Of a DNA stretch of 32,000 nucleotides, positions 2,534 through 15,984 are shown one piece after another. Source of the stretch: Opitutales bacterium. GTDB taxonomy: Bacteria; Verrucomicrobiota; Verrucomicrobiia; Opitutales; PNEW01. Below the pieces are notes generated by a model. It was not told the DNA's origin and ran no database searches. It saw nothing but the letters and a program-made list of their open reading frames with translations. Numbering within the stretch: the stretch's first letter is position 1; each line of letters opens with the position of its first letter. A program made the position numbers and the translations under genes. The stretch is from positions 2,280,001 through 2,312,000 of the forward strand of contig CBDCNV010000002.1 in assembly GCA_965219535.1 (NCBI GenBank), in the 5' to 3' direction.

Positions 2534-4006
2534 ATGACCTCTCGCCCGAATGTGCTCCTCATTGTGACAGATGAACAGCGGTATGACACGCTGGGTTGCA
2601 CGGGCCGCGAGCGTATCTCGACTCCGAACATCGATGGGTTGGCCGCGAATGGAATGCTCTTCGAAAATGCTTTCTGCACAACGCCCATCTGCACACCCGC
2701 GAGGACTTCCATTTTCTCAGGTCTCTATCCGCATACCCACGGAATGATTGCGAACCATCAAATGAGACCCGGTTGTGATCAGATGTTGATGCGTAAAGAT
2801 CTGAAACTCATTGCTGACTACCTAAAACCAGCAGGCTATTTCTGCGGCTACACGGGAAAATGGCATATGGGTTCCGGATACGACAGGAGAGGATTCTCAG
2901 CCTTTAAAGCCGCACATTTTAATTTCGATGTGGACCAGCCGGAAGAGAATGAAATCATTCAACATGCAAAAAAAATTGGAGTGGAGGTTACCGGCCGTCA
3001 TCAAGGTGGAATTGATCCCAACTGGGATAAGTATGACGAGACGATTTTTTTCGGGCCGTCCCGGTTTGGACTTGCCGATCACCCTGCATCGCTGATGTGT
3101 GATCGCGCTGTAGAGTTCATCCATGATGCATCTTCATTGGATCAACCATTTATGCTGGTGTGGAGCACCCATGAACCCCATCCGCCCTGGGTCTGCCCGG
3201 AGCCTTTTATCAGCATGTACAACTCCGATGAGATGATCCTTCCCGAAACCCTGAGAGATACTTATACCGCGACCCATCTCAAGGATCGCCTGCTGGAAGG
3301 TCATTTGCAATCGGTTGAGCAATGGAATGACGATCAGTTACGACAAATGTGGGCGGGCTATTTAGGCGAAGTCAGTTTCGTTGATTTTTTGACCGGACGG
3401 TTAATGGCGGCACTCCATCAAAAAGACCTCTTTGATAATACACTTATTATATTCACTTCGGATCACGGCGAGCTGCTGGGAAGCCACGGTTTTATTTACA
3501 AAAGTGCGTTAATGTTCGAGGAGCTGATTCACATCCCTTTAATTATTGTTCCTCCAGGCGGGGATAAAAAATCGGCGCGCTCTCCGGAACTTGTCTCTCA
3601 TGTCGACCTTATGCCGACGATTTTGAATTACTGTGGTGTTGAACCCCCGGAGGAACTTCACGGTGTATCCATCACCCCGCTCATCGAAGGGGATACACAA
3701 CCCGTGAGAGAAGGTTTAGCGGGAGAATATCATTCCTGTAGCTGGGCGGAAGATCCGGTGACACCCTTGCGAATGTGGCGAACCAGAAATTATAAATACA
3801 TCGAATCCCAGAATGGGATTAATGAATTCTATAACCTTGTTGAGGATCCTCACGAGAAGAACAACCTGATTGACGATCCTCACTACGAGGAGCAAATCAA
3901 TGAAATGCGGTCAGCTCTCTCGGATTGGTTAAAGAAGACTGGGGATACCTGGCCAGACGTTCCAGAACCCCCTGCCGGATTTCGCAGAACCGAACCACTC
4001 CCATAG
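2534..4006 (+). CDS. sulfatase (formylglycine-dependent, Cys-type)
   Basis: PNVLLIVTDEQRYD N-terminus, CTPARTSIFSG (C-x-P-x-R formylglycine motif), GKWHMG, IIFTSDHGELLG. No signal peptide is obvious. Confidence 0.93.
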   Translation: MTSRPNVLLIVTDEQRYDTLGCTGRERISTPNIDGLAANGMLFENAFCTTPICTPARTSIFSGLYPHTHGMIANHQMRPGCDQMLMRKDLKLIADYLKPAGYFCGYTGKWHMGSGYDRRGFSAFKAAHFNFDVDQPEENEIIQHAKKIGVEVTGRHQGGIDPNWDKYDETIFFGPSRFGLADHPASLMCDRAVEFIHDASSLDQPFMLVWSTHEPHPPWVCPEPFISMYNSDEMILPETLRDTYTATHLKDRLLEGHLQSVEQWNDDQLRQMWAGYLGEVSFVDFLTGRLMAALHQKDLFDNTLIIFTSDHGELLGSHGFIYKSALMFEELIHIPLIIVPPGGDKKSARSPELVSHVDLMPTILNYCGVEPPEELHGVSITPLIEGDTQPVREGLAGEYHSCSWAEDPVTPLRMWRTRNYKYIESQNGINEFYNLVEDPHEKNNLIDDPHYEEQINEMRSALSDWLKKTGDTWPDVPEPPAGFRRTEPLP

Positions 4007-4092
4007 AATATTTAAAATATTAAGATCGGGGAGAGTGGAAATTGCAAAAAGATCGACCTGACCCCTTTAGTATTTTAAGGATTACTTGAAAA

Positions 4093-4788
4093 ATGAGTCC
4101 GGTTGCCAATCCCAATCCAGCACATCGCCAACGGTACCTGGACAATGGTTTTGAATTTTACGAAAATCTTCTCAGCCATGATGAAGCGATTGAACTCTTA
4201 GAACTGTTGCGCCCAGCCCTGGATGGTGAATTAGGGCATGTCGGTTTCGGAGAGGAAGGCAATACGGATATTAAACACGGCCGGCAACAGCAGATTAGCA
4301 TCAGCGGCGATGGGCCGATTCCGAAATTAGCTGAGCATCCCTACCGTCACCGAGCCCAACAATTAGCTGAGTATCTCGCAGGTTATCCGTTACGGTTTTC
4401 CTACGGGCAGATAATTGCCAAACCGGCACAATACAACGCCCGGGAGCAATGGCACCAAGACGGTCACTATTGGCAAGGTCATACTGCGAGTGAAGCCGGC
4501 ATCACCTGTTGGGTCGCGTTGACGGCGTGCAATCCGAGAAACGGTGCTGTGGGATATGTGACAGGTAGCCACCGGACGGGTATTCATCAACACGCAAATG
4601 TTGTTGGCAAGTATGAGATCCACCGTGCCTTCGAGGTATCGGAACCCGCCTCAGACAAGGTGGTGTACGCCCACTTAGCTCCAGGTGACGCGGCATTTCA
4701 TCACAGCTTATGCATTCACGGTTCGTCTGGTAACCAGACCGATCAGCCGCGCATCGGCATTGTCTCCCATTTCTTCCCAGTCGAGTGA
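4093..4788 (+). CDS. phytanoyl-CoA dioxygenase (PhyH) family Fe(II)/2-oxoglutarate oxygenase
   Basis: WHQDGHYW (H-x-D iron ligands), VTGSHRTG, a distal His in FHHSLCIHGS, and RIGIVSHF (2OG-binding Arg region). Confidence 0.85.
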   Translation: MSPVANPNPAHRQRYLDNGFEFYENLLSHDEAIELLELLRPALDGELGHVGFGEEGNTDIKHGRQQQISISGDGPIPKLAEHPYRHRAQQLAEYLAGYPLRFSYGQIIAKPAQYNAREQWHQDGHYWQGHTASEAGITCWVALTACNPRNGAVGYVTGSHRTGIHQHANVVGKYEIHRAFEVSEPASDKVVYAHLAPGDAAFHHSLCIHGSSGNQTDQPRIGIVSHFFPVE

Positions 4789-4910
4789 GTATAAAACAAT
4801 CCAAATCGAAATCGCTATCGGGTTCGGGATCGATTCCGATAGCGATTTCAATCCCGATGAAAGATAATCCCAAGCAGATGGTGGAGTTTACGCTTAACGG
4901 CGCGCCCTGG
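4789..4910 (+). repeat. modular intergenic repeat, copy A (H + T modules)
   Basis: Starts 1 nt after the PhyH stop with gtataaaacaatccaaatcgaaatcg. It has a perfect 14-bp inverted repeat, gaaatcgctatcgg (4808-4821) / ccgatagcgatttc (4836-4849). The tail gatgaaagataatcccaagcagatggtggagtttacgcttaacgg is nearly identical to the tail of copy B. Confidence 0.85.
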
Positions 4911-4959
4911 GGGAAAAATTCTCTGGAAGCGTTATACATATACAATCAGAAAAGATAAC

Positions 4960-6261
4960 ATGAAAGAGCTACAACTTTTCGGCGGCTTCGCTCGAACCGA
5001 CATCACGCCCGAACTCGGTATTCTATTGATGGGTTATCCCGATCCAGACCGGAAAGCGGAGTCTGTCCGCGACCCATTGCAGGCAAACGCACTTGTCTTG
5101 AAGCAAGGAGAGACGACAGCAGTCCTGATCAGTTTAACGATCTGCATTCTTGAAGACACCGATGTAGAAAGGATCCGGCTGGGTATTCTGGAACAGACCG
5201 GCATAGACGCGGAGAGAATTGTGGTCTCTACTATTCAGACGCATTCCGCTCCCTGCACCATGACGTGTTGGGGGTGGTGCGATAAGGACGAGACCTACGT
5301 CGATCTTATCGTGAACCAGAGCATCAAAGCGGCGGTGAAAGCCAGTCAGAACCTGAAGGAAATTCAGGTCGGCTTTGGGAAGACGGAAAGTGATGTAGGC
5401 GTGAATCGTAGAGTGATCCTGGCCGACCACTCGGTTGCTCTGGGGAACAACCCCTGGGGGATCTACGATCCGGAAATGACTGTTGTCTGTTTTCAGAGCG
5501 CTGACGGTCCACTAGCAACCCTGATTCACTACGGCGCACATCCCACCGTCTTTACAAGCAAGAGCAGAGCGATTTCTCGTGATTGGCCTGGGGTCATGAT
5601 CGATCGGGTTGAAGACCTTACTGGCGCTCCAGCGCTTTTCGTAAACGCTGCAGTGGGCGACATAGCTCCCCGGAGCAATTTCCTCGGTGCGGTCGGAGAT
5701 GGAGAAGGAGCATTGCAAGAGGTCGGCACCCGGGCGGGAATGGATGCGATGCGAGCCATCCGGACGATCAAGGAATTCCGCAACGTGGAGCTGGGCATCA
5801 CGACAGGAGCATACCAATTACCCTACAGGTCTTTGCCCCCGGAGGAAGAAGCGAGTCGTAATCTTGCAGAAGCTGAACCTCACCGGAACGAATACGGTAA
5901 AGGCATGTGTGAATATAAATATTGGCAAGCCGTCGTCAGCGCTCAGCAGACCGCGCCAGTCTCCGGCAAGAACTATTTTCAGGTCATTCTGCGTCTTGGC
6001 CCAGTTGCGATAGTGCCGTTTCCGGGAGAGCCATTTGCTGAAATAGTCCTTCGCCTTCGTGATCTCAGTCCTGCCCAATACACGCTTTGTGCCAGTACAT
6101 CTTGTGGAAGCAACGGGTACTTCGTTACGCGTGAGTCCTTGGACCGCGGTGGGTATGAGGTCTGGGTAGCTAGAGCGATGGGGGCGTATATCCTTGCGGA
6201 GAATATTGATGATGTGCTGGTAGAGGAAAACATGAAGCTTCTTACCAAAGCCTACGCATAA
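4960..6261 (+). CDS. neutral/alkaline ceramidase-like N-terminal-domain hydrolase
   Basis: The N-terminus GFARTDITPELGILLMGYPDPDRKAESVRDPLQANALVL..TTAVLISLTICIL resembles bacterial 'neutral ceramidase N-terminal domain' proteins. This is recognised from memory only. Confidence 0.7.
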   Translation: MKELQLFGGFARTDITPELGILLMGYPDPDRKAESVRDPLQANALVLKQGETTAVLISLTICILEDTDVERIRLGILEQTGIDAERIVVSTIQTHSAPCTMTCWGWCDKDETYVDLIVNQSIKAAVKASQNLKEIQVGFGKTESDVGVNRRVILADHSVALGNNPWGIYDPEMTVVCFQSADGPLATLIHYGAHPTVFTSKSRAISRDWPGVMIDRVEDLTGAPALFVNAAVGDIAPRSNFLGAVGDGEGALQEVGTRAGMDAMRAIRTIKEFRNVELGITTGAYQLPYRSLPPEEEASRNLAEAEPHRNEYGKGMCEYKYWQAVVSAQQTAPVSGKNYFQVILRLGPVAIVPFPGEPFAEIVLRLRDLSPAQYTLCASTSCGSNGYFVTRESLDRGGYEVWVARAMGAYILAENIDDVLVEENMKLLTKAYA

Positions 6262-6339
6262 GGAAACGAATAAGAAGCAGGATGCAGGTGTCAGTTTATT
6301 GTCGCTCCTGATCCACGACTTTAGTAGGGTAGAGTGATC

Positions 6340-6705
6340 ATGAATTACGAAGCAATTAATTTGAAAAACAAACTCTCCAAATTTGATGAGCATTGGTCTC
6401 CCCGGGTCATCGCGGAGATGAATGACTATCAATTTAAATTAGCAAAAGGGGAAGGGGAGTTTGTCTGGCATGATCACCCGGATACAGATGAAGTCTTCAT
6501 CGTAATTGAAGGCACATTTGAAATTGAATTTAGAGATGGAAAAGTTACTCTGAATGAAGGTGAAATGTTCGTTGTCCCAAAAGGAGTTGAGCACAAGCCT
6601 TTCGCCAAAGGATTATGCCAGGTTTTAGTGATTGAGCCTAGAGGCGTCACAAACACCGGTAATACAGGTGGAGCACTTACAGCAGAAAATGACGTATGGG
6701 TATAA
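6340..6705 (+). CDS. cupin domain protein
   Basis: Cupin motifs [15 protein letters not shown] and [15 protein letters not shown] prefer the ATG at 6340 over the GTG at 6334. The gene is visibly AT-rich compared with its upstream neighbours. Confidence 0.85.
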
Positions 6706-6739
6706 AGCAGCTGAGAAATTAATTTACGCGGACCAGGGT

Positions 6740-7495
6740 ATGAATTCGAAACTATATTCAATGCTAAGCATTGTCATTAAAACATTTGAAAGACCCTATT
6801 GTACAAATCGAATAATAGATTCTATTTTTCATTACTACCCAAAGATGAAGGTTATTGTCGCGGATGACAGCCGTAATCCAGGTGAAAGTGATGCAGTTAA
6901 TTACCATAAACTCCCTTTTAATTCAGGCATAAGTTACGGGCGAAATTTTTTAATAAACCAAGTTAAAACAAAATATTTTTTACTCTTAGATGATGATTTC
7001 ATTTTTACGGAAAAGACAGATCTCAATACATTGTTAAATATTTTAGAGGGTAATGATGTTGATTTGGTGGCTGGGAATATTATGGAGAACATGAAATTAC
7101 GGGACTTATCGGGTATTGGCGTCATGAGACAAGAGGGAGGGACCTTGTATATAACGAGAAAAGAATATTCAGGTAAGCATTTGAATTATTACACCTGTGA
7201 TTTTGTACCCAATTTTTTTATGGCTAACACCGAGCGGATTAAAGAAGCAGGAGCTTGGGATAATGAATTGAAGGTTCAAGAGCACTGGGCATTTTTTTAC
7301 AAAATAAGAGGTAAAGTAAAAACGGCGTTTTGTCCTGCAGTTGAAATTGAACACAAAAGAGAAACCAACGAAAGATACGAGCGCTTTAATGGTAATATTG
7401 TGGATCTGACAGATCAACAGGTATTGGGAAAGCACATGTATAACCTAGAAAAAGTAATTTTTTTGCAAGACGGCAAGATAGGACAAAATTTCTAA
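6740..7495 (+). CDS. glycosyltransferase family 2-like protein
   Basis: LSIVIKTFERP...KVIVADDS and LLLDDDFIF (GT-A fold with a D-x-D-type motif). The long ORF from 6632 overlaps the cupin gene, so I prefer the ATG at 6740 (or 6761). The gene is AT-rich. Confidence 0.75.
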   Translation: MNSKLYSMLSIVIKTFERPYCTNRIIDSIFHYYPKMKVIVADDSRNPGESDAVNYHKLPFNSGISYGRNFLINQVKTKYFLLLDDDFIFTEKTDLNTLLNILEGNDVDLVAGNIMENMKLRDLSGIGVMRQEGGTLYITRKEYSGKHLNYYTCDFVPNFFMANTERIKEAGAWDNELKVQEHWAFFYKIRGKVKTAFCPAVEIEHKRETNERYERFNGNIVDLTDQQVLGKHMYNLEKVIFLQDGKIGQNF

Positions 7496-7505
7496 AAAGT
7501 TCAAT

Positions 7506-7815
7506 AGGGGTCAGGCTGTGCATATATCAGTTATTAACCTAGATCACATTATCCCGGTACGCTTTTTTTAAAAATTTAGAATTACTTGTTGTAAGTAAAA
7601 CAATCCAAATCGAAATCGGAATCGAAACCCAAATCGATCCCGATGAAAGATAATCCCAATCAGACGGTGGAGTTTGCGCCTAACGACGGGCCTCACTTTT
7701 AGCATTATTAGGCTAAGATTCTTTAAAGGATAAGCTATTTAAACTATTAGTTGCCAACCTTGACAATAATTTCATCTATCCGTGATTATACAGAACCTTA
7801 AAATTAATTATTTGT
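7506..7815 (+). repeat. modular intergenic repeat, copy B (P-H-T followed by a second P module)
   Basis: The unit starts with GGGGTCAGGC at 7507. TAGAAT (7577-7582) is followed by TACTTGTTGTAAGTAAAAC. A hexamer-periodic stretch covers 7601-7646. The tail contains GGTGGAGTTTGCGCCTAACG and TTAGCATTATTAGGCTAAG (7647-7730). A second promoter-like module has TTGACA (7760-7765) and TAAAAT (7799-7804). Confidence 0.85.
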
Positions 7816-7846
7816 TTAACGACATCCAAACCCGGGACCCAAACTC

Positions 7847-8854
7847 ATGGCAATTGATTCGCAAGCTTATACAACGATCGACTACGACAAGGACGGGAAA
7901 CAATTCGGTAGACTGGATGTGCCGCTATCGACTAACCGTTCAGGATGGGCGACCCTCTTCGTCGATGTCGCCGTAGTCAAGAACGGCGATGGACCCACTG
8001 CGGTCTTGTTCGGCGGCAACCATGGCGATGAATACGAGGGGCCGACGGCGTTGATGAAACTAGCGAAACGCCTGACCCCGGATCAAATCACCGGCCGCGT
8101 CATCATTGTACCTGCGCTCAACCCGCCGGCCGTCGATGCCGGCACCCGCCACTCGCCGATTGATGGCCGCAACATGAATCGCGCCTTCCCGGGGCATCGT
8201 GACGAGGTCTCGGTGACAGGTATCATCGCCCATTATATGGCGCACGAGATCATTCCGAAAGCGGATCTCGTAGTGGATATTCATTCCGGCGCGGTCACCG
8301 CGCATTGGCTTCCCTGCGTCAATATGCATCATGTACCGGATGACAAGCAGATGGGACAAATGATCGAGACTGCCAAAGTGTGGGGCACGCCGTACGTTTT
8401 TATTTACCAGGATATCGCGGGTAGCGGTCTTTTGCCGGGCTACGCGGAATCGCTGGGCAAGATAACCCTGGGCACGGAGATCGGAGGATCAGCACAATAC
8501 GGCAGAGAAATGGTGGCGATCACAGAAACCGGTGTCGATAACGTCCTGCGCCACGTTGGTATTCTGAGCGGTGAAATTTCGAAGCCGGAAGGCGAGCCGC
8601 ATGTTGTCGCGGCCGACCGCCACGAGGACTATGTCATGGCACCCGTTGGCGGGGTGTTCGAACCGTTTGTCGAGCTCTCGGATCACATCGAAGACGGCCA
8701 GGCGCTTGGGCAAATTCATTCGCTGGAGCGCCCGTTCGACGACCCGTATCCGGTACTCGCGGAGACCAACGGCATGGTGATTTCACGCCGATCGTTTCCG
8801 CGTACGCAGCGTGGGGATTACCTGGTTGCAATCGTGCGGCCATGGAGTGGGTGA
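7847..8854 (+). CDS. succinylglutamate desuccinylase/aspartoacylase (AstE/AspA) family zinc deacylase
   Basis: FGGNHGDEYEGPTALMKL, RNMNRAFPG and VVDIHSG are typical of this M14-like family. Confidence 0.88.
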   Translation: MAIDSQAYTTIDYDKDGKQFGRLDVPLSTNRSGWATLFVDVAVVKNGDGPTAVLFGGNHGDEYEGPTALMKLAKRLTPDQITGRVIIVPALNPPAVDAGTRHSPIDGRNMNRAFPGHRDEVSVTGIIAHYMAHEIIPKADLVVDIHSGAVTAHWLPCVNMHHVPDDKQMGQMIETAKVWGTPYVFIYQDIAGSGLLPGYAESLGKITLGTEIGGSAQYGREMVAITETGVDNVLRHVGILSGEISKPEGEPHVVAADRHEDYVMAPVGGVFEPFVELSDHIEDGQALGQIHSLERPFDDPYPVLAETNGMVISRRSFPRTQRGDYLVAIVRPWSG

Positions 8855-8919
8855 TGGGTTTTTAGGATGTGCCGCGCCGCTGAGCTTGACCGCAATAGAT
8901 GCAGAAAAAAGGAGATGAA

Positions 8920-9486
8920 ATGAAAATCGTGTTAATCGGGGACTCGATACGGATAGGGTATCAACCACTGGTGATGAAGAAGTGTAAGAAAGCTGAGGTA
9001 TGGGGGCCTACGGAGAATTGTCGACATAGCCTCTGGGTCCTCGATCATTTTCAGGAATGGGTTGCCGACGAGGATCCGGATGTGATTCATGTTAACTTTG
9101 GCATACACGATTGCATCCCAATGGCTGACGGGGACCACCAGATTCTGCTTCCTCAGTACCGGCTCTCCCTCAAACGGGTAATTGAAAAAGTCAAAGAGCT
9201 TGAGAAGACACAGATGATCTGGGCCACCACCACGCCGCTATACACTTCCGAGCAGAATAAACCGATGAACGAGTGGCAGATCAGGGGTAATGCCAAGCTT
9301 AAGGAATACAACGATGCCGCGCTCGAGATCGTACAGGCTGAAGGTATACCGGTGAACGATCTACACGAGGTCATTATGAGTAATGACTACACCAAGTGCC
9401 TCATTGAGGACGGATGCCATATGACCGAATTAGGAAACGTGGTTTTGTCGGATGCCGTGGTCAAAGCGACTGAGGCGTTGCTGTAG
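8920..9486 (+). CDS. SGNH/GDSL-type hydrolase
   Basis: KIVLIGDSI (block I G-D-S) and DGCHMTELG (block V D-x-x-H). AAGGAG at 8909-8914 lies 5 nt before the ATG at 8920, so I prefer that start over 8899. Confidence 0.8.
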   Translation: MKIVLIGDSIRIGYQPLVMKKCKKAEVWGPTENCRHSLWVLDHFQEWVADEDPDVIHVNFGIHDCIPMADGDHQILLPQYRLSLKRVIEKVKELEKTQMIWATTTPLYTSEQNKPMNEWQIRGNAKLKEYNDAALEIVQAEGIPVNDLHEVIMSNDYTKCLIEDGCHMTELGNVVLSDAVVKATEALL

Positions 9487-9525
9487 GTGACACAAACGAT
9501 ACCTCCGACGAATTCATAAATAGTA

Positions 9526-10047
9526 ATGTTCAAGAATAACGGTATTCACGTTGACTATCGAAAATGGCCGGACACGACGCATTGGCAGTTTACAGTCTAT
9601 CCACTGGGCAACGACACCTATGGTCGCTGGTTTTATATTCCTGAGGGAGCTTCACTTCAGCGAGGAACAGAACCATCCGTGATCAATACTCGCACCTTTG
9701 CGATGCTTATCGGAGATGACATTTGGTGGGCGGCATTCTGGAACACCGACAAGACAAAGGCACACGAGTTGTACATCGATGTCATAACACCGGTAATCTG
9801 GAACGGGAATAAAGTTATGATGATCGATTTAGATCTGGATGTTGTACGCACATGGGAAGGAAAAGTCGAAATCATCGACCGTGATGAATTTGAGGATCAC
9901 CAGAAGCTATTGAATTATCCCAGAGAAGTCATAGATACAGCAGAACGAACCGCAGATGCATTGGCAGAATCTGTTGCGAGTGGGCAGGAGCCATTTGGCA
10001 CCACGGGTGCTGCGTGGCGAGACGAAGCGATCTCAAGAAATCCCTAA
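9526..10047 (+). CDS. DUF402 domain protein (nucleoside di/triphosphatase-like)
   Basis: The pattern WW..FW....ELYIDV.TP.......V...DLDLDV......V.I.DRDEF......YP matches my recollection of the DUF402 family. Confidence 0.7.
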   Translation: MFKNNGIHVDYRKWPDTTHWQFTVYPLGNDTYGRWFYIPEGASLQRGTEPSVINTRTFAMLIGDDIWWAAFWNTDKTKAHELYIDVITPVIWNGNKVMMIDLDLDVVRTWEGKVEIIDRDEFEDHQKLLNYPREVIDTAERTADALAESVASGQEPFGTTGAAWRDEAISRNP

Positions 10048-10101
10048 TGTCTATAGGTGCGGCGAGGCTTAACCTTGTGAAGGTGGCATTTACTCGCTCG
10101 G

Positions 10102-11538
10102 CTAAAATGTCTGTTCTAGGTAATTGTCTACGAAGGGATCAGCAGTAGTTGTCATATGACTCTTCATCGCATCTTGAAGCCGAGACTGTTCTGTCGCAGC
10201 TTCAGATTTGTCGATCAGATTATTTATTTCATACGGATCTTCACTCAGATCGAAGAGCTCATCCAGATCACCATTGTTCCACACATATTTCCATCGGTTA
10301 TCAGTCACCAAACGCCATTCCACGGTATGGTGAAAACTCCCCAAGGGTTTATGCTCGCTGTAGACATACCGGTCTTGAAAGGGATCGACATCGCCAGTTG
10401 CGAGAAGCGATGAGAGATCCTCTCCCTCTAATTCCTCAGGAACATCAGCGCCACCCTGTGACATTAAGGTGGGCATAACATCAAGCAGTGACACGGTCGC
10501 ATCGGATACAACATTTTGCGAAAGCCACGGCGCGCTGAAGATCAACGGCACTCGCAGATTCTCTTCATAAGGTTCATACTTTTGAAACAGACCGTGAGCG
10601 CCCAACATTTCACCGTGGTCACTGCAGTAGATGACCAGGGCATCCTCAGTAAGACCTTCATCGTCTAAAGCTTTCAGGATTCGCCCGGTCTGATGATCGA
10701 TGTGCGTGCAGAACCCCCAATACGCAGCGAAGGCCTTTTTCCACGGTTCCCAGTCGGTTCCGAAATCCCGGCAGATCTGCCGGTAGTAGTTGTTAGGATT
10801 ACATGCCCGCTCCCGCTCATTCGGCAAGAAGTTTGGAGGGACGGGTATAGCCGTGGGATCGTACATGCTGAAGTAGGGCTCGGGTACTTTGAATGGCGGG
10901 TGCGGTCCGATAAACCCGCAGGTGAGAAAGAAAGGTCGATCTTCGGGTCGGTTTTTCAAATGCTGAATGGTAACGTCGGTGATCCAGGCATCCATCGTTT
11001 CTTCCGGCGGAAGGTCCTCCACGACCGGTGTTGGGATAGACATTCGGGGTTGTGTCTTCGTTACAACTCGCTCATCTGACATAAAAGCCCAGGTCTCTAT
11101 ACTTTTCGGCCAACTACTAATGGAGTTTGCCTCGTAACGATCAAAAGTGTCGGGAAGAATATCGTCATTCAGATGCCACTTGCCAACGTAATGCAGAAAG
11201 TAGCCCTGGGACCGGAGAGGTTCGGTGAAGGGCATGGGGTCCATCGGGTCGCCGCCATTCATCGTCATAGTGGGGACATCTTCCGTGTCATACATGGACC
11301 CCGGATTTTTCGCCCTTTCTGCCGCCAGGTCTTTCCACTTTGCGCGAACCTGATGGGGATGCCTACCGGTGAAAATCCCGCATCGAGCGGGGGCACAGCG
11401 AGTGAACGAGACACCGGTTGCGGCCAAGCGATCCAGGTTCGGTGTTTTGCACGGTGTGCGGTTCAGGTGACCCAGGGTGTCTACGCGCTGCTGGTCAGAA
11501 ATGATAAAGAGTATATTGGGCCGACTGTTATGTTTCAT
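10102..11538 (-). CDS. sulfatase (formylglycine-dependent, Cys-type)
   Basis: PNILFIISDQQRVDTLG, CAPARCGIFTGRHPH (C-x-P-x-R), GKWHL, VIYCSDHGEMLGAHG. Confidence 0.93.
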   Translation of the reverse strand: MKHNSRPNILFIISDQQRVDTLGHLNRTPCKTPNLDRLAATGVSFTRCAPARCGIFTGRHPHQVRAKWKDLAAERAKNPGSMYDTEDVPTMTMNGGDPMDPMPFTEPLRSQGYFLHYVGKWHLNDDILPDTFDRYEANSISSWPKSIETWAFMSDERVVTKTQPRMSIPTPVVEDLPPEETMDAWITDVTIQHLKNRPEDRPFFLTCGFIGPHPPFKVPEPYFSMYDPTAIPVPPNFLPNERERACNPNNYYRQICRDFGTDWEPWKKAFAAYWGFCTHIDHQTGRILKALDDEGLTEDALVIYCSDHGEMLGAHGLFQKYEPYEENLRVPLIFSAPWLSQNVVSDATVSLLDVMPTLMSQGGADVPEELEGEDLSSLLATGDVDPFQDRYVYSEHKPLGSFHHTVEWRLVTDNRWKYVWNNGDLDELFDLSEDPYEINNLIDKSEAATEQSRLQDAMKSHMTTTADPFVDNYLEQTF

Positions 11539-11685
11539 GTGTATTCTTTACTACGATTGATTAACATATAGGTTTTCAGTAGGGGCGGACATGCACCTGT
11601 CACTGCCAACCTGAAATAGTGTTTTCAAAGATTGGAACGATCCATCGGTGAAGATTAGAAGACAAGAGAAATCAGTGAGCCCGTT

Positions 11686-11988
11686 TATGTGTCTATCAGT
11701 TGTGAACCTTGATAACAATTTACCCAATTCGTGAATTATTCAGGACTTAAGAATTACATTGTATGAGTAAACAAATCGAAATCGGGATCGAATCTATAGA
11801 ACCAATAAGATCGATTGCGATAGCGATTTGGATGAAATAAAATTACAACCGGAAGGTGGAGGCAACGCCTGACGGCGAGATTAAGATAATTAAAAGAGGT
11901 CACCCTCTTTTTTTTGCTATCAGTTGTGAATCTTGACAACATTTTATTCCGACTAAAAATGCAGAACTTTAGAATCACTTGTTGGGCC
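11686..11988 (+). repeat. modular intergenic repeat, copy C (P-H-T-term-P)
   Basis: TATCAGTTGTGAACCTTGATAACA occurs at 11694-11718, and a second copy, TATCAGTTGTGAATCTTGACAACA, at 11918-11941. TAAGAAT is at 11748-11754. The leader and periodic segment run from 11765. The tail contains GGTGGAGGCAACGCCTGACGG. TAGAAT at 11970-11975 lies 13 nt before the ATG at 11989. Confidence 0.85.
11895..11915 (+). terminator. terminator-like short hairpin plus T8 inside repeat copy C
   Basis: agagg (11895-11899) / cctct (11904-11908) with loop tcac, then a T-run to 11915. The stem is only 5 bp, so any terminator activity would be weak. Confidence 0.35.
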
Positions 11989-12516
11989 ATGAACAGATAC
12001 CTATACAAAGTATCCCAGCCACGCTCAGATCTGGTGTTCCATCCAAGCACTTTCTGGCACACTTTAGATTGGGAGAGCAGTACTACTCGTTACCGCGATG
12101 ACTACATTGAGGACAAGGTCCTGTATGTTGGCGATTTTGACGAGGTGAATATCCATCTCTTTCCACGCGAGAGGACAGTAAGGGTACGTGCAATTGATGC
12201 GAACCATTCGACTCTTGAAGGCTGTGGAATATTGTGCTTACCTGGCAAAACGGCATACATATTCTGTGCCACCTCAGGTAAGAATGAAGTGGAATCATTT
12301 AGACCAACGATTTTTAAATTCACTTCAGATGGTTTTACAAGAGTTCGAAAAGGCGAATACGTTTCTCGGGTGCCTCAAAAAGCTATAGGCTCGGAAACGA
12401 TGTCCATTGCCGAAGCAGTAAATAAATGGAATATTCAGGTTTGCTATGTTGCGGATCTCAATGCCTTGATTGCCATCCTGACTCGAGAGAAAATATATTT
12501 TGATGAACAAACCTAA
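11989..12516 (+). CDS. hypothetical protein (no family recognised)
   Basis: 175-aa ORF from the first ATG after the repeat. The 11914 start lies inside the repeat's promoter-like module. The 3' end overlaps the next ORF by 14 nt. Confidence 0.55.
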   Translation: MNRYLYKVSQPRSDLVFHPSTFWHTLDWESSTTRYRDDYIEDKVLYVGDFDEVNIHLFPRERTVRVRAIDANHSTLEGCGILCLPGKTAYIFCATSGKNEVESFRPTIFKFTSDGFTRVRKGEYVSRVPQKAIGSETMSIAEAVNKWNIQVCYVADLNALIAILTREKIYFDEQT

Positions 12517-13219
12517 GCCTAATAAGACGGAATATATTGAAATGTTCGAGGATGGTCCCGGGGGATGGTATGCATGGATCAGTAACTTTGAGGGTCCCAA
12601 ACCGCTCGCATACGAGAAGAGCATTGTCACAACTCGTAGCCCCTGGTGGATTGACTATAACCACGCACCCCCAGGAGCAGGTTATATGCACATGCTGGCT
12701 TGTTTGTCCACCTACGGTCCGGAAACAGAAGTGATTAAAGAAGCTGGTGGGCCCAGTCGCTTTATCGCGGGCGGCTATCCAACGGATTTTACGAATGCGA
12801 AAATGACCGTGCGCCTCAAAGGAGAATTACTGAAGCGCAATGCAGAACTTGTAGTGTTGGTGCAAGGAGGGGTTGAGGGCATTTGCAGTGGCTGGCTTTT
12901 GACCGGCCAAGTCCTTCAGATGTCCGAGCAGTGGACCGAGCAGACGGTGACCTTAGCGCCTGACCCGTCGCAATGGACTGCCCTGGGATCTCGTCATGAC
13001 CGCACTGACTCTTACGGTGTCAAACCGTTGGACAAGGTTCTGCGTAATGTCGACATTAATATTATGTTGGTGATGTTTCCCTTGAATGTCGTTCCAATGG
13101 GATCCGTAGGTGGCGACCCCCATGTTCTTCGCGCGGGTCATGACTACCCAGTGTGGCGGTCGAAACTTCCAGAGGGCTACATCATTCTGGACGAAGTCCG
13201 CATCCAGTTTGCAGGTTAA
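12503..13219 (+). CDS. hypothetical protein (no family recognised)
   Basis: 238-aa ORF. The ATG at 12503 overlaps the upstream stop region (12514-12516), which suggests translational coupling. There are no competing ORFs of similar length, and codon usage resembles neighbouring genes. Confidence 0.6.
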   Translation: MNKPKPNKTEYIEMFEDGPGGWYAWISNFEGPKPLAYEKSIVTTRSPWWIDYNHAPPGAGYMHMLACLSTYGPETEVIKEAGGPSRFIAGGYPTDFTNAKMTVRLKGELLKRNAELVVLVQGGVEGICSGWLLTGQVLQMSEQWTEQTVTLAPDPSQWTALGSRHDRTDSYGVKPLDKVLRNVDINIMLVMFPLNVVPMGSVGGDPHVLRAGHDYPVWRSKLPEGYIILDEVRIQFAG

Positions 13220-13278
13220 TCGACTCCAGGTGACGGCTAGCCCAGGATGCACTTATTAATGAGCCAAATACAATCAGA

Positions 13279-13731
13279 ATGAAAGCAAAAACAATTCGCG
13301 TAATTTCAATATGTATATTCAAACACAATCAAAATATATTGGTCTTTGAAGGTTTTGATTCTGTAAAAAAGACAATGTTTTATCGCCCCCTTGGTGGAGG
13401 TGTAGAACCCGGTGAAACAACTGAGAAAACTATAAAACGTGAAATCAGAGAAGAGTTAAGTTTAGAAATGACAGACCTCAATCTGTTAGGGGTGGTAGAG
13501 AATATTTTCACATGCGAAGGTGAACAAGGGCATGAAATTGTGTTTGTCTACGATGGTCGATTCGTCGATAAAACAGTATATGATCTTCCAGGGTTGAAGG
13601 TACATGAAGATAATGGGGAAGTGTTAAGAGCAGAATGGCGTAGTCTTGATTCATTTGATGAAAATCACCGTTTAGTACCAGAGAAAATAGAGAAATTATT
13701 ACAGGAAACAGGATCTGATGGAACTACTTGA
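13279..13731 (+). CDS. NUDIX hydrolase
   Basis: Nudix box GGGVEPGETTEKTIKREIREELSL (G-x5-E-x7-R-E-x2-E-E). Confidence 0.88.
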   Translation: MKAKTIRVISICIFKHNQNILVFEGFDSVKKTMFYRPLGGGVEPGETTEKTIKREIREELSLEMTDLNLLGVVENIFTCEGEQGHEIVFVYDGRFVDKTVYDLPGLKVHEDNGEVLRAEWRSLDSFDENHRLVPEKIEKLLQETGSDGTT

Positions 13732-13755
13732 ATGCTCACTACAAGATAGCTAGAA

Positions 13756-13834
13756 GGGGTCAGGCGGTGTATTTATCAGATGTCAACTTTGATAGTATTT
13801 TACTCCTAATCAATATGCTGAACCCTAGAATCAC
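13756..13834 (+). promoter_or_regulatory. solo promoter-like (P) module of the repeat family, upstream of the GNAT gene
   Basis: GGGGTCAGGCGGTGTATTTATCAGATGTCAACTTTGATAG...CTGAACCCTAGAATCACTTGTT aligns with the P modules of copies B, C and F. TTGATA is at 13789-13794 and TAGAAT at 13826-13831. Promoter activity is inferred, not shown. Confidence 0.5.
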
Positions 13835-13849
13835 TTGTTATGCTACGGT

Positions 13850-14266
13850 ATGAAAATGATGATCCGTAAATTTCAAAAAGAAGATAGAGATGCCTTAATT
13901 CAATTGTGGAAAACGGTCTTCCCTGATGATCCTCCTCACAATGATCCCTCAGTTGTTATCGATGCAAAGCTTGCTGTAGATGATCTTATATTTATCGCAG
14001 TAGATGATGGAAAAATAGTTGGTGCTTGCATGGCTGGATATGATGGGCACCGCGGTTGGTTGTATGCAGTAGCTGTCTTAAAGGAATATCGACGGAGTGG
14101 TGTCGGAGCAGAACTCGTTAAACATGCCATGCATTCGCTACAGAAAATCGGCTGTATCAAAGTAAATTTACAATTACGCTCGACGAATAAAGAAGTTGAG
14201 GCGTTTTATAAATCTTTGGGATTCGCCACAGAGGAACGGATTAGTATGGGAGCATTTATTGAATAA
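13850..14266 (+). CDS. GNAT family N-acetyltransferase, YpeA-like
   Basis: AGYDGHRGWLYAVAVLKEYRRSGVGAELV resembles E. coli YpeA (GGYDGHRG...FRGRGIA), together with an acetyl-CoA binding R-x-x-G-x-G/A motif. The start could be 13850, 13856 or 13859. The TTG at 13835 lies inside the repeat. Confidence 0.85.
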   Translation: MKMMIRKFQKEDRDALIQLWKTVFPDDPPHNDPSVVIDAKLAVDDLIFIAVDDGKIVGACMAGYDGHRGWLYAVAVLKEYRRSGVGAELVKHAMHSLQKIGCIKVNLQLRSTNKEVEAFYKSLGFATEERISMGAFIE

Positions 14267-14308
14267 AATATATAAGAACTGTATGCAGTTTAATAGAGGG
14301 AAAATCAT

Positions 14309-14740
14309 TTGCGAATAAGTCTTGCAGTTATCTTAGGTGCGGTTGTCGGCACCATTATCTTTTTTATAGTCGGGGTTATTTCCAATGCCATCAATCCGAC
14401 TCCACCTGAGTTGATGGATCCGGTAACCCCAGAAGCTGTAGCGCAGCGGGTGGCATCCGTCTCTACAAGTACTTGGCTCACGACACTATTTGGACTCGCT
14501 TTGGGTGCATTTTCAGGGGGTGTCATCGGTGCCAAAGTTGCCAAGAAAAAAATAATCTGGGTAACTAGCGCGATCGGTTTGGTGCATTCCCTTTGGGCTT
14601 TTTATACTTTCTATATCGTTTTTCCCGCAGTCCTTTGGGTTCCAATTGGAATGCTGATCTCAACCTTTCTTTTCTCCTATCTTGGAGGGGTTGTCGTAAT
14701 GCAATCCAAACAAAAAAATAGCGGCCCCACTAATAGTTAG
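14309..14740 (+). CDS. small integral membrane protein, unknown function
   Basis: Four hydrophobic stretches (AVILGAVVGTIIFFIVGVI, LTTLFGLALGAFSGGVIG, VTSAIGLVHSLWAFYTFYIVF, VPIGMLISTFLFSYLGGVVV). The start is a TTG and there is no in-frame ATG nearby, so the start is uncertain. Confidence 0.55.
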   Translation: MRISLAVILGAVVGTIIFFIVGVISNAINPTPPELMDPVTPEAVAQRVASVSTSTWLTTLFGLALGAFSGGVIGAKVAKKKIIWVTSAIGLVHSLWAFYTFYIVFPAVLWVPIGMLISTFLFSYLGGVVVMQSKQKNSGPTNS

Positions 14741-14950
14741 AAGGGATCAGCCTCTTTTATTGCTTTTAGTAAAACAATCCAAATCGGTATCGTAATCGGA
14801 ATCGAATCTACAGAACCAATAAGATCGATCCCGATCCCGATTTCGATCCCGATAGCGATGAAACAAAATTTCAAACAGACCGTGGAGGCAGCGCCTAACG
14901 GGGTGCTTCACATTTAGCATTAATAGGCGAGCATACTTTAAAGTGGTCTA
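14741..14950 (+). repeat. modular intergenic repeat, copy D (term-like, H, T)
   Basis: Begins immediately after the stop of the membrane-protein gene with GGATCAGCCTCTTTTATTGC. It continues with GTAAAACAATCCAAATCGGTATCGTAATCGGAATCGAATCTACAGAACCAATAAGATCGATCCCGAT. The tail contains CCGTGGAGGCAGCGCCTAACGG and CATTTAGCATTAATAGGCGAGCATACTT. Confidence 0.85.
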
Positions 14951-14954
14951 AAAA

Positions 14955-15096
14955 GGGGTCAAACGTAGAATTTAAATGTTATAATTCGATTAACGTTTAC
15001 TTATCCATTTTTTCTCTCTCCTGCATTCGTTAAGCATTTTAAACATGACTGCTTCATCTACTGGTCGATCTATATTTAAATTCTACGTTTGACTCC
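14955..15096. mobile_element. 142-bp MITE-like element with 23-bp terminal inverted repeats
   Basis: GGGGTCAAACGTAGAATTTAAAT (14955-14977) and ATTTAAATTCTACGTTTGACTCC (15074-15096) are reverse complements. Twenty base pairs are perfect and 22 of 23 match overall. There is no ORF inside. The element sits between repeat copies D and E. Confidence 0.7.
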
Positions 15097-15107
15097 TTCC
15101 TTCTCAA

Positions 15108-15280
15108 CTCAATCTACAGAACCAATAAGATCGATCCCGATAGCGATATCGATCCCGATTTCGATCATGATAGCGATGAAACAATATTTCAACCAGACAG
15201 TGGAGGTAGCGCCTAACGGCGTGCCTTACATTTAGCATTAATAGGTTAGCATACTTAAGAGTGATCAGCCTCTTTTTTGC
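15108..15280 (+). repeat. modular intergenic repeat, copy E (right arm, T, term; no 5' leader)
   Basis: CAATCTACAGAACCAATAAGATCGATCCCGATAGCGATATCGATCCCGATTTCGATCATGATAGCGATGAAAC...AGTGGAGGTAGCGCCTAACGG...CATTTAGCATTAATAGGTTAGCATACTT, ending in GATCAGCCTCTTTTTTGC. Confidence 0.85.
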
Positions 15281-15395
15281 TTTTTGGTGTTAACCTTGAA
15301 TACATTATCCCGATACGAGAGTTATTCAGAACTTTAGAATTACTTGTCGTAAGTAAAACAATCCAAATCGGGATCGTAATCAGAATCGAAGTAAG
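15281..15395 (+). promoter_or_regulatory. P module plus left hexamer-periodic arm (5' leader) of the gene-bearing repeat copy F
   Basis: AACCTTGAATACATTATCCCGATACG...CAGAACTTTAGAATTACTTGTCGTAAGTAAAACAATCCAAATCGGGATCGTAATCAGAATCGAA, followed by gtaag and the ATG. TTGAAT is at 15296-15301 and TAGAAT at 15335-15340. Confidence 0.55.
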
Positions 15396-15800
15396 ATGAC
15401 GTTGGGACACGAGAAACTGGACGTTTACTGTCTTTCCATCGACTATGTCGCTTGGGTTTATGATGTGTCGGAAAGGCTGCATGGCGTTCATCGTCACGCC
15501 CGCGACCAGTGGCTACGGGCAAGCCAGTCGATACCTCTGAACATTGCGGAAGGTAATGGAAAAACATCTGAACCGGACCGAAGAAGGTATTTTGAGATCG
15601 CGCGGGGCTCTGCTTTGGAGTGTGCCGCGATTCAGGATGTTCTGGTTGTCGGAAAGGCCTTGGAAAAGAAGACGAGCGAGGGGCGAAAGAGCGAGTTGGA
15701 CCGGATGGCCGCGATGCTAAGTCGACTGGGCGGACGGGGCTATTCTGTTGAAGAAGAGCGTGCAATCTACAGAACCAATGAGATCGATAGCGGTACGTGA
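15396..15800 (+). CDS. four-helix-bundle protein (23S rRNA intervening-sequence protein family)
   Basis: HEKLDVY..., RDQWLRASQSIPLNIAEGNGKTSEPDRRRYFEIARGSALECAAIQDVL is the hallmark of the family. I recall it as TIGR02436/PF05635, named from memory. The C-terminus ends early (AIYRTNEIDSGT*) where repeat copy G begins. Confidence 0.85.
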   Translation: MTLGHEKLDVYCLSIDYVAWVYDVSERLHGVHRHARDQWLRASQSIPLNIAEGNGKTSEPDRRRYFEIARGSALECAAIQDVLVVGKALEKKTSEGRKSELDRMAAMLSRLGGRGYSVEEERAIYRTNEIDSGT

Positions 15801-15952
15801 ATTACTTGTTGTAAGTAAAACAATCCAAATCGAAATCGGTATCGTAATCGGAATCGAATCTTCAGAACAAATAATATCGATCCCGATAGCGATTTCGATC
15901 CCGATGATATGAAATATCAATCAGACCGTGGAGGTCAGCCTCTTTTTTTTTT
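15801..15952 (+). repeat. modular intergenic repeat, copy G (partial P, H, truncated T, term)
   Basis: ATTACTTGTTGTAAGTAAAACAATCCAAATCGAAATCGGTATCGTAATCGGAATCGAATCTTCAGAACAAATAATATCGATCCCGATAGCGATTTCGATCCCGATGAT...CAGACCGTGGAGGTCAGCCTC followed by T10. Confidence 0.85.
15931..15952 (+). terminator. terminator-like short hairpin plus T10 at the end of repeat copy G
   Basis: gagg (15931-15934) / cctc (15939-15942) with loop tcag, then ten T (15943-15952). The stem is very short, so function is uncertain. Confidence 0.35.
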
Positions 15953-15984
15953 GCTTTTATTTTTTATCATGATAAAGAAAGAAA

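Follow-up and report, generated by a model that had tools for sequence, protein, structure and literature searches.

A repeated module with a predicted promoter and an attI-like 3' end precedes unrelated genes in marine Opitutales

The integron platform is described as comprising one attI site, one Pc promoter and one integrase (PMC4889954). Clusters of attC sites without a nearby intI gene are termed CALINs, by a definition that includes neither a head sequence nor a promoter; they are common, half of the known ones lie in genomes without IntI, and their expression has been raised as an open question (Cury et al. 2016, PMC4889954). Cassettes also enter attG sites, which are numerous and loosely defined by GWT and a short right-hand motif (Loot et al., bioRxiv 10.1101/2022.09.11.507474).

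The module described here, termed P, is a repeated stretch of 70-100 bases in the marine Opitutales genome G000 and its relatives. Like attI with its Pc promoter, P is a non-hairpin site ending in GTTRRRY at which different promoterless cassettes are joined between G and TT (G/TT), with a predicted outward promoter just upstream and attC-bounded cassettes downstream. Unlike attI, P has no intI beside it or found in the genome and is present in 10-25 copies instead of one; a terminator-like hairpin lies ahead of it, and it alternates with a hairpin/four-helix-bundle unit. The dispersed arrays behind P resemble CALINs in having two or three attCs and no intI found in the genome, but each array found here has a common promoter-bearing head. 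As with attG sites, the cassettes lie outside a classical integron, at GTT, and would be expressed if near a resident promoter, whereas P is a single long, conserved sequence that is used repeatedly at one base position. The Correia elements of Neisseria and the pneumococcal BOX elements are modular, multi-copy intergenic repeats that can bring promoters or hairpins to unrelated genes, and they multiply much as transposons do, inserting with terminal inverted repeats and duplicated target sites. P is likewise modular, multi-copy intergenic DNA beside unrelated genes, but it has integron-type joints and no inverted termini.

P copies and their cargo

The window, the whole stretch of 32,000 nucleotides analysed, contained six matches to the P profile, all on the plus strand (E 2e-16 to 3e-21). 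Seven further copies were found in G000 outside the window, with a total of at least 11 for the genome, and dozens were found in two related Opitutales genomes and marine metagenome contigs, at 10-25 per genome across the genomes compared. The best-conserved part of P, a 22-nt core (CAGAACTTTAGAATCACTTGTT), occurred 11 times in G000 when 4 mismatches were allowed; as a control, shuffled versions of the core, ten in all, gave only 2-8 matches even with 5 allowed.

The original prediction, that one promoter-like module precedes five unrelated genes in the window, was confirmed, with strong P copies at four of the five sites and all positions at these four correct on reading the sequence. The copy before the AstE-family gene (7724..7819, plus strand, profile) has TTGACA at 7760-7765, GATTAT at 7784-7789 and a degenerate core at 7791-7812 with TAAAAT at 7799-7804, ahead of the ATG at 7847. 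Before the unknown gene pair (11891..11990, plus strand, profile), a terminator-like hairpin at 11892-11911 is followed by TTGACA (11933-11938), AAAAAT (11955-11960), a perfect core (11962-11983) with TAGAAT at 11970-11975, the junction GTTGGGC (11981-11987) and the ATG at 11989. The copy before the GNAT gene (13751..13847, plus strand, profile) has TTGATA at 13789-13794, CAATAT at 13811-13816, its core at 13818-13839 with TAGAAT at 13826-13831, and the junction GTTATGC at 13837-13843, before the ATG at 13850. A copy of type H (15256..15355, plus strand, profile; core 15327-15348, TAGAAT 15335-15340) faces the left hairpin arm and the four-helix-bundle gene (15396-15800), with its ATG at 15396. 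The PhyH site was the weakest of the five: TAAGGAT does end 10 nt before the ATG at 4093, but it belongs to a degenerate, indel-bearing 14-nt remnant of the P 3' end (TTAAGGATTACTTG, 4075..4088, plus strand, from reading the sequence), which lies 4 nt from the ATG, lacks the upstream/-35 part and was missed by the P profile even at E<10. The junctions at PhyH and AstE are not clean GTTRRRY.

The remaining copies, 7502..7596 (core 7569-7590, then GTAAGTAAAACAATCC; profile and core search) and 11671..11768 (degenerate core 11741-11762; profile), are plus-strand copies of type H with a hairpin module ahead, not a gene. The second faces the H-T module at 11760-11886 (profile), and an H-T module with GCCTAAC at 7678 lies at 7586..7729 (plus strand, profile and core-like motif). 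P alternates in the window's array with the hairpin/four-helix-bundle unit.

H-T modules had been noted immediately after the stops of the PhyH and membrane-protein genes, and profile matches were indeed found on the plus strand from 4786 (stop 4788) and from 14761 (stop 14740). The first (4786..4944, E 4e-38, hairpin z -2.3) carries the core-like motifs GCTTAAC at 4892 and GTTATAC at 4930. The second (14761..14948, with GCCTAAC at 14893) comes after a terminator-like hairpin that follows the stop; P is absent here, and G003 has P at the equivalent place. Another H-T module, ending in a hairpin and a T-run (15807..15982, plus strand, profile and fold), lies past the four-helix-bundle gene, behind a P 3' fragment (GAATTACTTGTT, 15800-15811). 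The proposal that cargo is bracketed as P, gene(s), H-T, like bookends, was partly right: two cargo blocks fit it and cargo lies at the P/H junction, whereas the remaining two have a further P at their end and H-T is not a canonical attC. The T module was rejected as a canonical attC (GCCTAAC...TTAGGC spans about 40 nt, z about 0). In the window's array, no canonical attC was found beyond one truncated relic between the GNAT and membrane-protein genes (TGTATGCA followed by GTTTAAT; 14267..14294, plus strand, from reading and comparison), at whose position the relative G003 has a full attC.

The anticipated genome-wide placement of P ahead of, and co-oriented with, start codons was borne out. 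An ORF of at least 100 aa on the same strand started within 60 nt of 24 of the 34 gene-facing copies (non-redundant, three genomes), compared with 22% of random genome positions. The genes behind P are functionally unrelated. Their contexts differ between genomes: the GDSL gene is directly behind P in G001 and G003 and behind AstE in G000, and the second gene of the unknown pair was found in three different contexts.

Promoter boxes and the conserved core

At its 5' end, P carries a small palindrome, GTTGTCAA-CC-TTGACAAC, which includes the -35 box TTGACA. This is followed by a spacer of 16-18 nt, a GAATAT-type -10-like box and the 22-nt core, with TAGAAT inside the core and downstream of the GAATAT-type box. 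TTGACA and TAGAAT had been thought to lie about 31 nt apart, too far for one sigma70 pair, and about 30 nt was measured (11933-11938 to 11970-11975). Two options had been left: that TTGACA pairs with a -10 about 17 nt downstream, or that TAGAAT itself is the -10. The first is favoured. A predicted -35 and an nAnnnT box (GAATAT, GATTAT, CAATAT or AAAAAT, ending 1 nt before CAGAAC) were found 16-19 nt apart in 40/52 copies, a sigma-70-type arrangement in which the second and sixth bases of the -10 are A and T, and TTGACA was perfect in 28. No -35 box pairs with TAGAAT, and in 10/52 copies the last T of this hexamer is replaced by C or A, which speaks against the second option. A consensus promoter scan found two of the window's P copies, in a region where the scan was not enriched over shuffles. 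A promoter reading of P, with the GAATAT-type box as -10, is therefore plausible from its sequence.

The promoter idea does not explain why the most conserved 22 nt lie downstream of the -10, nor the knife-edge end after CTTGTT. One explanation would be that a regulator or RNA-binding factor recognises the core as its operator or 5'-leader element, the genes behind the core forming a regulon and the GTT end being incidental. Core conservation does exceed that of the -35 and -10 boxes, the core contains an AGAAC/AGAAT direct repeat, and P is kept with orthologous genes across genera despite a replaced -35 part (C2:900341, L020, L026). Such an element would leave the G/TT breakpoints, the junction/attC complementarity and the attC arrays unexplained, the cargo lacks functional coherence, no Rfam family matched and the leader has no significant fold; we regard this explanation as highly improbable. 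In fold analyses of P on either strand, no significant structure was found (z -1.3 to +1.0), and the consensus folds only at the 7-bp 5' palindrome, which would be in keeping with the double-stranded recognition expected of an attI site. P was rejected as an attC, as it forms no hairpin (an attC is an imperfect hairpin of 55-140 nt with paired R''/R' and L''/L').

The G/TT boundary and the arrays behind dispersed copies

The conservation profile of 52 non-redundant P copies ended abruptly. Information content was 1.6-1.8 bits across TTGTT and fell to 0.2-0.4 bits at the following base, and the four bases past the boundary leaned to RRRY (junctions GTTAGGC, GTTGGGC, GTTATGC, GTTAGAC, GTTAAAT and others). 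Homology broke at the same place: the copy at C1:552607 of G000 and that in L018 of G001 share 92.6% identity across 242 nt ending with the core's last T, and are unrelated beyond. The cut point in the core lies after CAGAACTTTAGAATCACTTG and before TT. Boundary, homology break and junction sequences therefore give P the GTTRRRY end with a G/TT crossover that is expected of an attI site.

An attI site is also followed by cassettes whose start is complementary to the inverse core (R'') of their own attC, and this was observed outside the window. Where the first ORF stops, the sequence matched the reverse complement of the junction 7-mer at 7/7 positions in 5 of 29 gene-facing copies and at 6/7 in 4 more; 1/790 mismatched junction/cassette pairs scored 7/7, and in 20 of the 29 copies the rule did not hold at this stop codon. 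A sixth perfect case was found in metagenome contig L065, where P is followed by TTAGCG, CGCTAAC and GTTATGG. In the window, the copies at 11891 and 13751 did not follow the rule (5/7 at the first stop, at best 6/7 within the cargo).

Canonical attCs were found behind dispersed copies. P at C1:552607 heads three cassettes, each of which fits its own inverse core (TTCTAAC, GTATAAC and CCCTAAC) with its first six bases, and P at C2:889965 heads two (GCCTAAC..GTTAAGC and GCCTAAC..GTTGGGT). Hairpin folds were obtained for these attCs (z -1.9 to -2.7), which were judged by eye, fold and the cassette rule, not by IntegronFinder's model; no consensus structure was derivable from nine local attCs. With three and two attCs and no intI nearby, both arrays correspond to CALINs (at least two attCs on one strand), and every recognisable integrase-less cassette array in the genome was headed by a promoter-bearing P. 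A cassette in another genus (G003) shares 98% identity with the first one of the C2:889965 array, whose homology stops at the G/TT of its attC.

It is very unlikely that P is instead the lineage's cassette-terminal site, a double-stranded substitute for attC at the cassette 3' end whose promoter reads into the next cassette. Within arrays, P does come after almost all cargo blocks and four-helix-bundle units, G003 has a P-only segment (L022:9365 to 9938) that runs from an attC crossover to the junction that follows, and the 5' palindrome block, the sole folding part of the consensus, resembles a core remnant beside an inverse core. In the canonical arrays, however, P is present at the head only and the cassettes end in ordinary attCs; the fold of P is unlike that of attC, and from copy to copy the two halves of the 5' palindrome vary without matching each other.

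The search for an integron integrase was negative in G000 (94% complete), where the best match to TIGR02249 scored 84 bits against a cut-off of 265, and TIGR02249 had no match at E<=1e-30 in G003 or in G001, which consists of one contig of 4.49 Mb. Searches by tblastn with six Opitutales IntI proteins gave only Xer-like genes, far from any P, and no intI was found beside P in six metagenome contigs. The intI neighbour that defines attI is thus missing from P. In the order Opitutales, integron integrases above the curated cut-off were found in 8 of 61 sampled genomes.

A candidate docking site for cassettes

On balance, P is probably the conserved left arm of a multi-copy, attI-like primary recombination site of integron type, with an outward Pc-like promoter of its own. 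Circular gene cassettes would be joined to P between G and TT of the terminal GTTRRRY, presumably by an IntI-type enzyme that is absent from these assemblies, and the cassette gene would be transcribed from the P promoter, which lies some 25 nt ahead of the joint. Since cassettes would join at this G/TT, whichever gene was carried would start 5-50 nt past the core. P abuts unrelated genes, we propose, because its 3' end behaves as an integron-type crossover (G/TTRRRY) that takes spliced-in cassettes. The window would then contain a series of docking sites in tandem that carry cargo at the P/H junctions, this cargo having probably arrived by cassette joining at P, and the P promoter would be active. 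Against this attI-like reading stands the single attI of a normal integron compared with 10-25 copies of P, many of them inside arrays. The conservation of the core also goes well beyond what the left arm of an attI would require, and so the core may have a further role.

Alternatively, P might be the portable promoter and leader of the P-H-T repeat, a four-helix-bundle transcription unit, spread by duplication and homologous recombination; cassettes would have entered the GTT of P only as one of the loose secondary attG sites (consensus GWT) that IntI can also use, with promoter-near insertions being expressed and kept. This is consistent with the confinement of tandem P-H-T units to one locus per genome, with P subtypes that correlate with the following sequence, and with copy homology that sometimes starts inside P, as for recombination between repeats. 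Cassette insertion at many genomic sites, with expression near a resident promoter, also has precedent (bioRxiv 10.1101/2022.09.11.507474). It nevertheless seems rather unlikely, as many independent loci, from three genomes and from metagenome contigs, have different cassettes joined to P at the identical base, and conservation within the module is highest just ahead of the joint, which is unexpected for fortuitous secondary sites.

A more speculative extension of the attI-like reading, which we consider doubtful, is a 'many-headed' integron of the Opitutales, with dozens of promoter-bearing docking sites, dispersed along the chromosome and in tandem with the hairpin/four-helix-bundle unit, served in trans by a recombinase other than a recognisable resident IntI. 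This could be the integrase of a visiting mobile element or a different enzyme that has adopted the G/TT chemistry, with the four-helix-bundle (Avd-like) unit as a possible functional partner instead of a mere passenger.

Cassette joining at P would account for the identical 5' region on unrelated accessory genes in this lineage and for the species differences in gene order of the 17-kb island. The 22-nt core provides a sequence handle for finding such heads in metagenomes. If the P promoter fires, these arrays would give a concrete answer to how orphan cassettes are expressed and, if P is recombination-proficient, it would be a natural case of many parallel cassette docking sites in one chromosome.

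Distribution and putative promoter boxes of module P

The window, at C2:2280001-2312000, is located towards the end of a contig of 2.31 Mb in the source Opitutales genome, G000 (4.47 Mb in total, 45% G+C, 94% completeness). Almost every gene from about 4000 to 16000 lies on the + strand, and the functions are unrelated: the genes encode PhyH, a ceramidase-like hydrolase, a cupin, a GT2 glycosyltransferase, an AstE-family enzyme, a GDSL hydrolase, DUF402, a sulfatase (- strand), two unknown proteins, NUDIX, GNAT, a small membrane protein and a 23S-IVS-family four-helix-bundle protein. The intergenic spacers of this region are assemblies of repeated modules, and an Rfam scan of the whole window (E ≤ 1) gave no match. 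At 24243-25223, an IS3-family transposase present as two adjoining ORFs (HTH_Tnp_1, then a short rve core) is probably a decayed insertion sequence, and is unrelated to P.

A profile of the promoter-like module P was built from six module copies, and recovered all six copies in the window, each on the + strand (E 2e-16 to 3e-21), with further matches in G000 at C1:552607, C1:568530, C1:1290775 and C2:889965. The 22-nt core of P, CAGAACTTTAGAATCACTTGTT, occurred 11 times in G000 at up to 4 mismatches, whereas ten shuffled cores gave only 2-8 matches each, even at up to 5 mismatches. Two copies with identical cores (C1:859701 and C1:2153891; 3 mismatches each) were followed by an ORF of only 8 codons; with one situated close to the C1 contig end, they may be part of a larger repeat. 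The original prediction placed P directly in front of five unrelated genes. Four of these sites were true copies, at the positions and distances predicted; the sequence at PhyH was also present, but merely as a 14-nt indel-bearing remnant that the profile missed. The window copies at 7502 and 11671 point at a hairpin module rather than at a gene.

At least 17 copies of P were found in G001 (OY829953.1) and at least 13 in G003 (CBDANS01), the nearest relatives, and six marine metagenome contigs carried it. In the rest of the public collection, taken as one genome per species, only single chance matches were obtained. The consensus of 52 non-redundant copies was tatcaGTTGTCAAcCTTGACAACATTATCCCCATACGCGAATATA-CAGAACTTTAGAATCACTTGTT. 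In 18 of the 52, the sequence after P was GTAAGTAAAACAATCC, which forms the left arm of a hairpin that encloses the four-helix-bundle gene in some units, and in 34 it was different. In this second group a same-strand ORF of at least 100 aa began within 60 nt in 24 of the 34, against 22% of random positions, with relatedness among the copies inflating any simple count statistic.

Of the 52 copies, 40 had a -35 box with an nAnnnT box 16-19 nt downstream (GAATAT, CAATAT, AATTAT or GATTAT, ending 1 base before CAGAAC), and 28 had a perfect TTGACA. Two promoter readings had been proposed, one pairing TTGACA with a -10 box about 17 nt downstream and one using TAGAAT as the -10, and the gap between TTGACA and TAGAAT had been judged too long for a single sigma-70 pair. 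This gap is indeed 30 nt, and TAGAAT has no -35 partner. Moreover, the final T of TAGAAT is replaced by C or A in 10 of the 52 copies. The last T of the -10 is the base that a sigma-70 box tolerates losing least. For both reasons the first reading was favoured over the second, and TTGACA with the nAnnnT box would be the better candidate for the promoter of P. The transcript would start inside CAGAAC, with the remainder of the core as leader, and activity of this putative promoter seems reasonably likely. ECF, sigma-54 and Bacteroidetes-type promoters were compared by eye as the identity of the core, and their consensus sequences did not fit. A literature search on transcription starts in Verrucomicrobia returned nothing of use. 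The -35 box is also half of a palindrome, GTTGTCAA-CC-TTGACAAC (e.g. window 11924-11941, and 3710-3730 of the G001 locus L017), which resembles a core-site remnant beside an inverse core. It is the sole folding part of the P consensus (7 bp), and its halves show no co-variation between copies.

The end of P and the cassettes behind it

Conservation in P peaks not in the promoter boxes themselves but in the 22 nt that follow them. The right edge of the core is sharp: information content falls from about 1.7 to about 0.3 bits per base directly past CTTGTT. The bases that follow lean towards RRRY, so that P ends as GTTAGGC, GTTGGGC, GTTAGAC, GTTATGC and similar. Read as sequence, the end of P is an integron core site (GTTRRRY, crossover G|TT). 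The copy at C1:552607 and the G001 locus L018 share 92.6% identity through 242 nt ending at the last T of the core, and are unrelated thereafter.

The first six bases of an integron cassette (TTRRRY) derive from its own attC, and so complement the inverse core that closes the same cassette at its 3' end. In 29 gene-facing copies, the region of the first ORF's stop codon was accordingly searched for the junction 7-mer in reverse complement. Five copies agreed at 7/7 and a further four at 6/7, compared with 7/7 in 1 of 790 mismatched pairs. L065, one of the metagenome contigs, has P|TTAGCG as its junction, matched by CGCTAAC...GTTATGG two genes on, in an array that terminates at a tRNA gene. The GTT of P is probably an IntI-type crossover point.

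Visual inspection, folding and this cassette rule served to recognise sites of the attC type. Behind C1:552607, three cassettes (DUF7919, an unknown gene and a methyltransferase) are bounded by TTCTAAC...GTTATAC, GTATAAC...GTTAGGG and CCCTAAC..., each fitting the start of its own cassette, and behind C2:889965 two cassettes are bounded by GCCTAAC...GTTAAGC and GCCTAAC...GTTGGGT. The attCs of both arrays fold as hairpins of 57-87 nt (z -1.9 to -2.7). P has no such fold, which ruled it out as an attC. The first C2:889965 cassette (C2:889405-889990), encoding a 158-aa membrane protein, is 98% identical in DNA to its counterpart in G003 (L023), which belongs to a different genus, and the similarity stops at G|TT in the cassette's attC. 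Third codon positions were likewise 98% identical, against 83-91% in other shared neighbouring orthologues, and this difference points to a recent transfer of the single cassette.

A heuristic genome-wide attC finder was overly permissive, returning hundreds of ordinary hairpins, and a stricter version failed on true sites. RNAalifold gave no consensus structure from nine local attCs, so that no attC covariance model was obtained. An nhmmer profile of the nine found its own members and one extra attC, behind C1:568530, and nothing else.

Cargo and hairpin modules in the window

The integron signature was weaker in the window's own array. Junctions matching the core site were found at 11981 (GTTGGGC) and 13837 (GTTATGC), and those of AstE and PhyH were degenerate. 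At the P copies 11891 and 13751 complementarity was 5/7 at the first stop and at best 6/7 within the cargo, short of the cassette rule. No complete attC was present in this array; a truncated one (..TGTATGCA GTTTAAT) lies between the GNAT and membrane-protein genes, and the equivalent position in G003 holds a full site. The 17-kb island is syntenic with G001, with the cargo blocks in a different order. The GDSL gene directly follows P in G001 and G003, but AstE intervenes in G000, and the second member of the unknown pair lies behind P in G003, behind the cupin in G001 and behind its partner gene in G000. The comparison with the relatives does show turnover at P. Whether the window's own cargo came by integron-type joining appears evenly balanced.

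The hairpin modules H-T were correctly predicted after both PhyH and the membrane-protein gene, and the PhyH insertion begins 4 nt ahead of the ATG and ends 0 nt past the stop. The wider picture, of cargo bracketed by P and H-T, holds insofar as the P|H junction is the usual place of cargo, but this is a kernel of truth and not the whole arrangement. H-T was confined in G000 to C2:2279307-2295982. The module is a stable hairpin in which a GCCTAAC motif and a relic of the tail of the four-helix-bundle gene are found. Its fold is not that of an attC; when T-Term-P was taken as one attC, or H-T as the attC of PhyH and membrane-protein cassettes, complementarity was just 5-6/7 and the inner boxes were unpaired. 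Every T module contains GCCTAAC or GCTTAAC (4892, 7678, 14893 and 15211; GCCTGAC near 11870), the most frequent integron inverse core in G000. An imperfect TTAGGC lies about 30 nt past the GCCTAAC, and the left end of H is RTAAAAC. These motifs may be decayed attC parts, not folding as one attC.

The gene-less H-T copies (11792-11880, 14806-14898 and 15112-15216) were compared with the four-helix-bundle gene (15396-15800) in the frame of its last codons, and the frame was open through the Asp-X repeat with a stop (TAA or TGA) at the same place. An H-T copy in G001 (L017:3495-3640) carries an internal deletion of this gene. No paper tying 23S-IVS proteins to integrons was found in the literature searched. 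At 14953-15098 an H-T module is interrupted by a MITE-like element whose terminal inverted repeats (AAGGGGTCAAACGTAGAATTTAAAT) are 25 nt long. At least 12 such elements are present in G000, often beside P (C1:568706-568837, C1:898334, C1:907403, C1:1765014, C2:748539 and others).

Integrase search and status of the P-headed arrays

The integron integrase model TIGR02249 gave a best score of 84 bits in G000 (cut-off 265), and no match at E ≤ 1e-30 in G001 (a single 4.49-Mb contig) or G003. Scores above the cut-off were obtained in 8 of 61 sampled Opitutales genomes, all of other families, and no P-like sequence was found beside the intI genes of those families. Searches by tblastn with six Opitutales IntI proteins returned just Xer-like genes, distant from any P. 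Xer-like recombinases of G000 lie at C1:1805898 and C2:2090097. Pfam analysis of the neighbours of P at four G000 and three metagenome loci revealed no transposase or recombinase. In G059, a 7.2-Mb genome of another Opitutales family with several intI copies above the curated cut-off, a sulfatase gene directly adjoins intI (L052).

Upstream of the P copy at C1:552607, a broken reading frame with an HTH end (..IAAIARKLKLNYNTVYSWIQKYS; C1:552700-552900, about 7700-7900 of L047, - strand) resembles the N-terminal part of a transposase. Separating this pseudogene from P is a 140-nt 'U' block, which also occurs at C1:568530, in G001 and in L065.

The main rival explanation is that P is a mere portable promoter, and that cassettes were inserted there as they are at the secondary sites termed attG (Loot et al., bioRxiv 10.1101/2022.09.11.507474); against this, one identical base was reused at many loci. 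Less likely, the core may act as an operator or leader, or P as the terminal site of a cassette. On balance we lean towards P being a multi-copy docking site of the attI type that carries a Pc-like promoter and is now without its integrase. As no integrase was found in G000, G001 or G003, or beside P at the seven loci inspected, the P-headed arrays can be classed as CALINs, defined as attC clusters without an integron integrase (PMC4889954). That two species of one genus differ in their cassettes implies that recombination has been active since their split.
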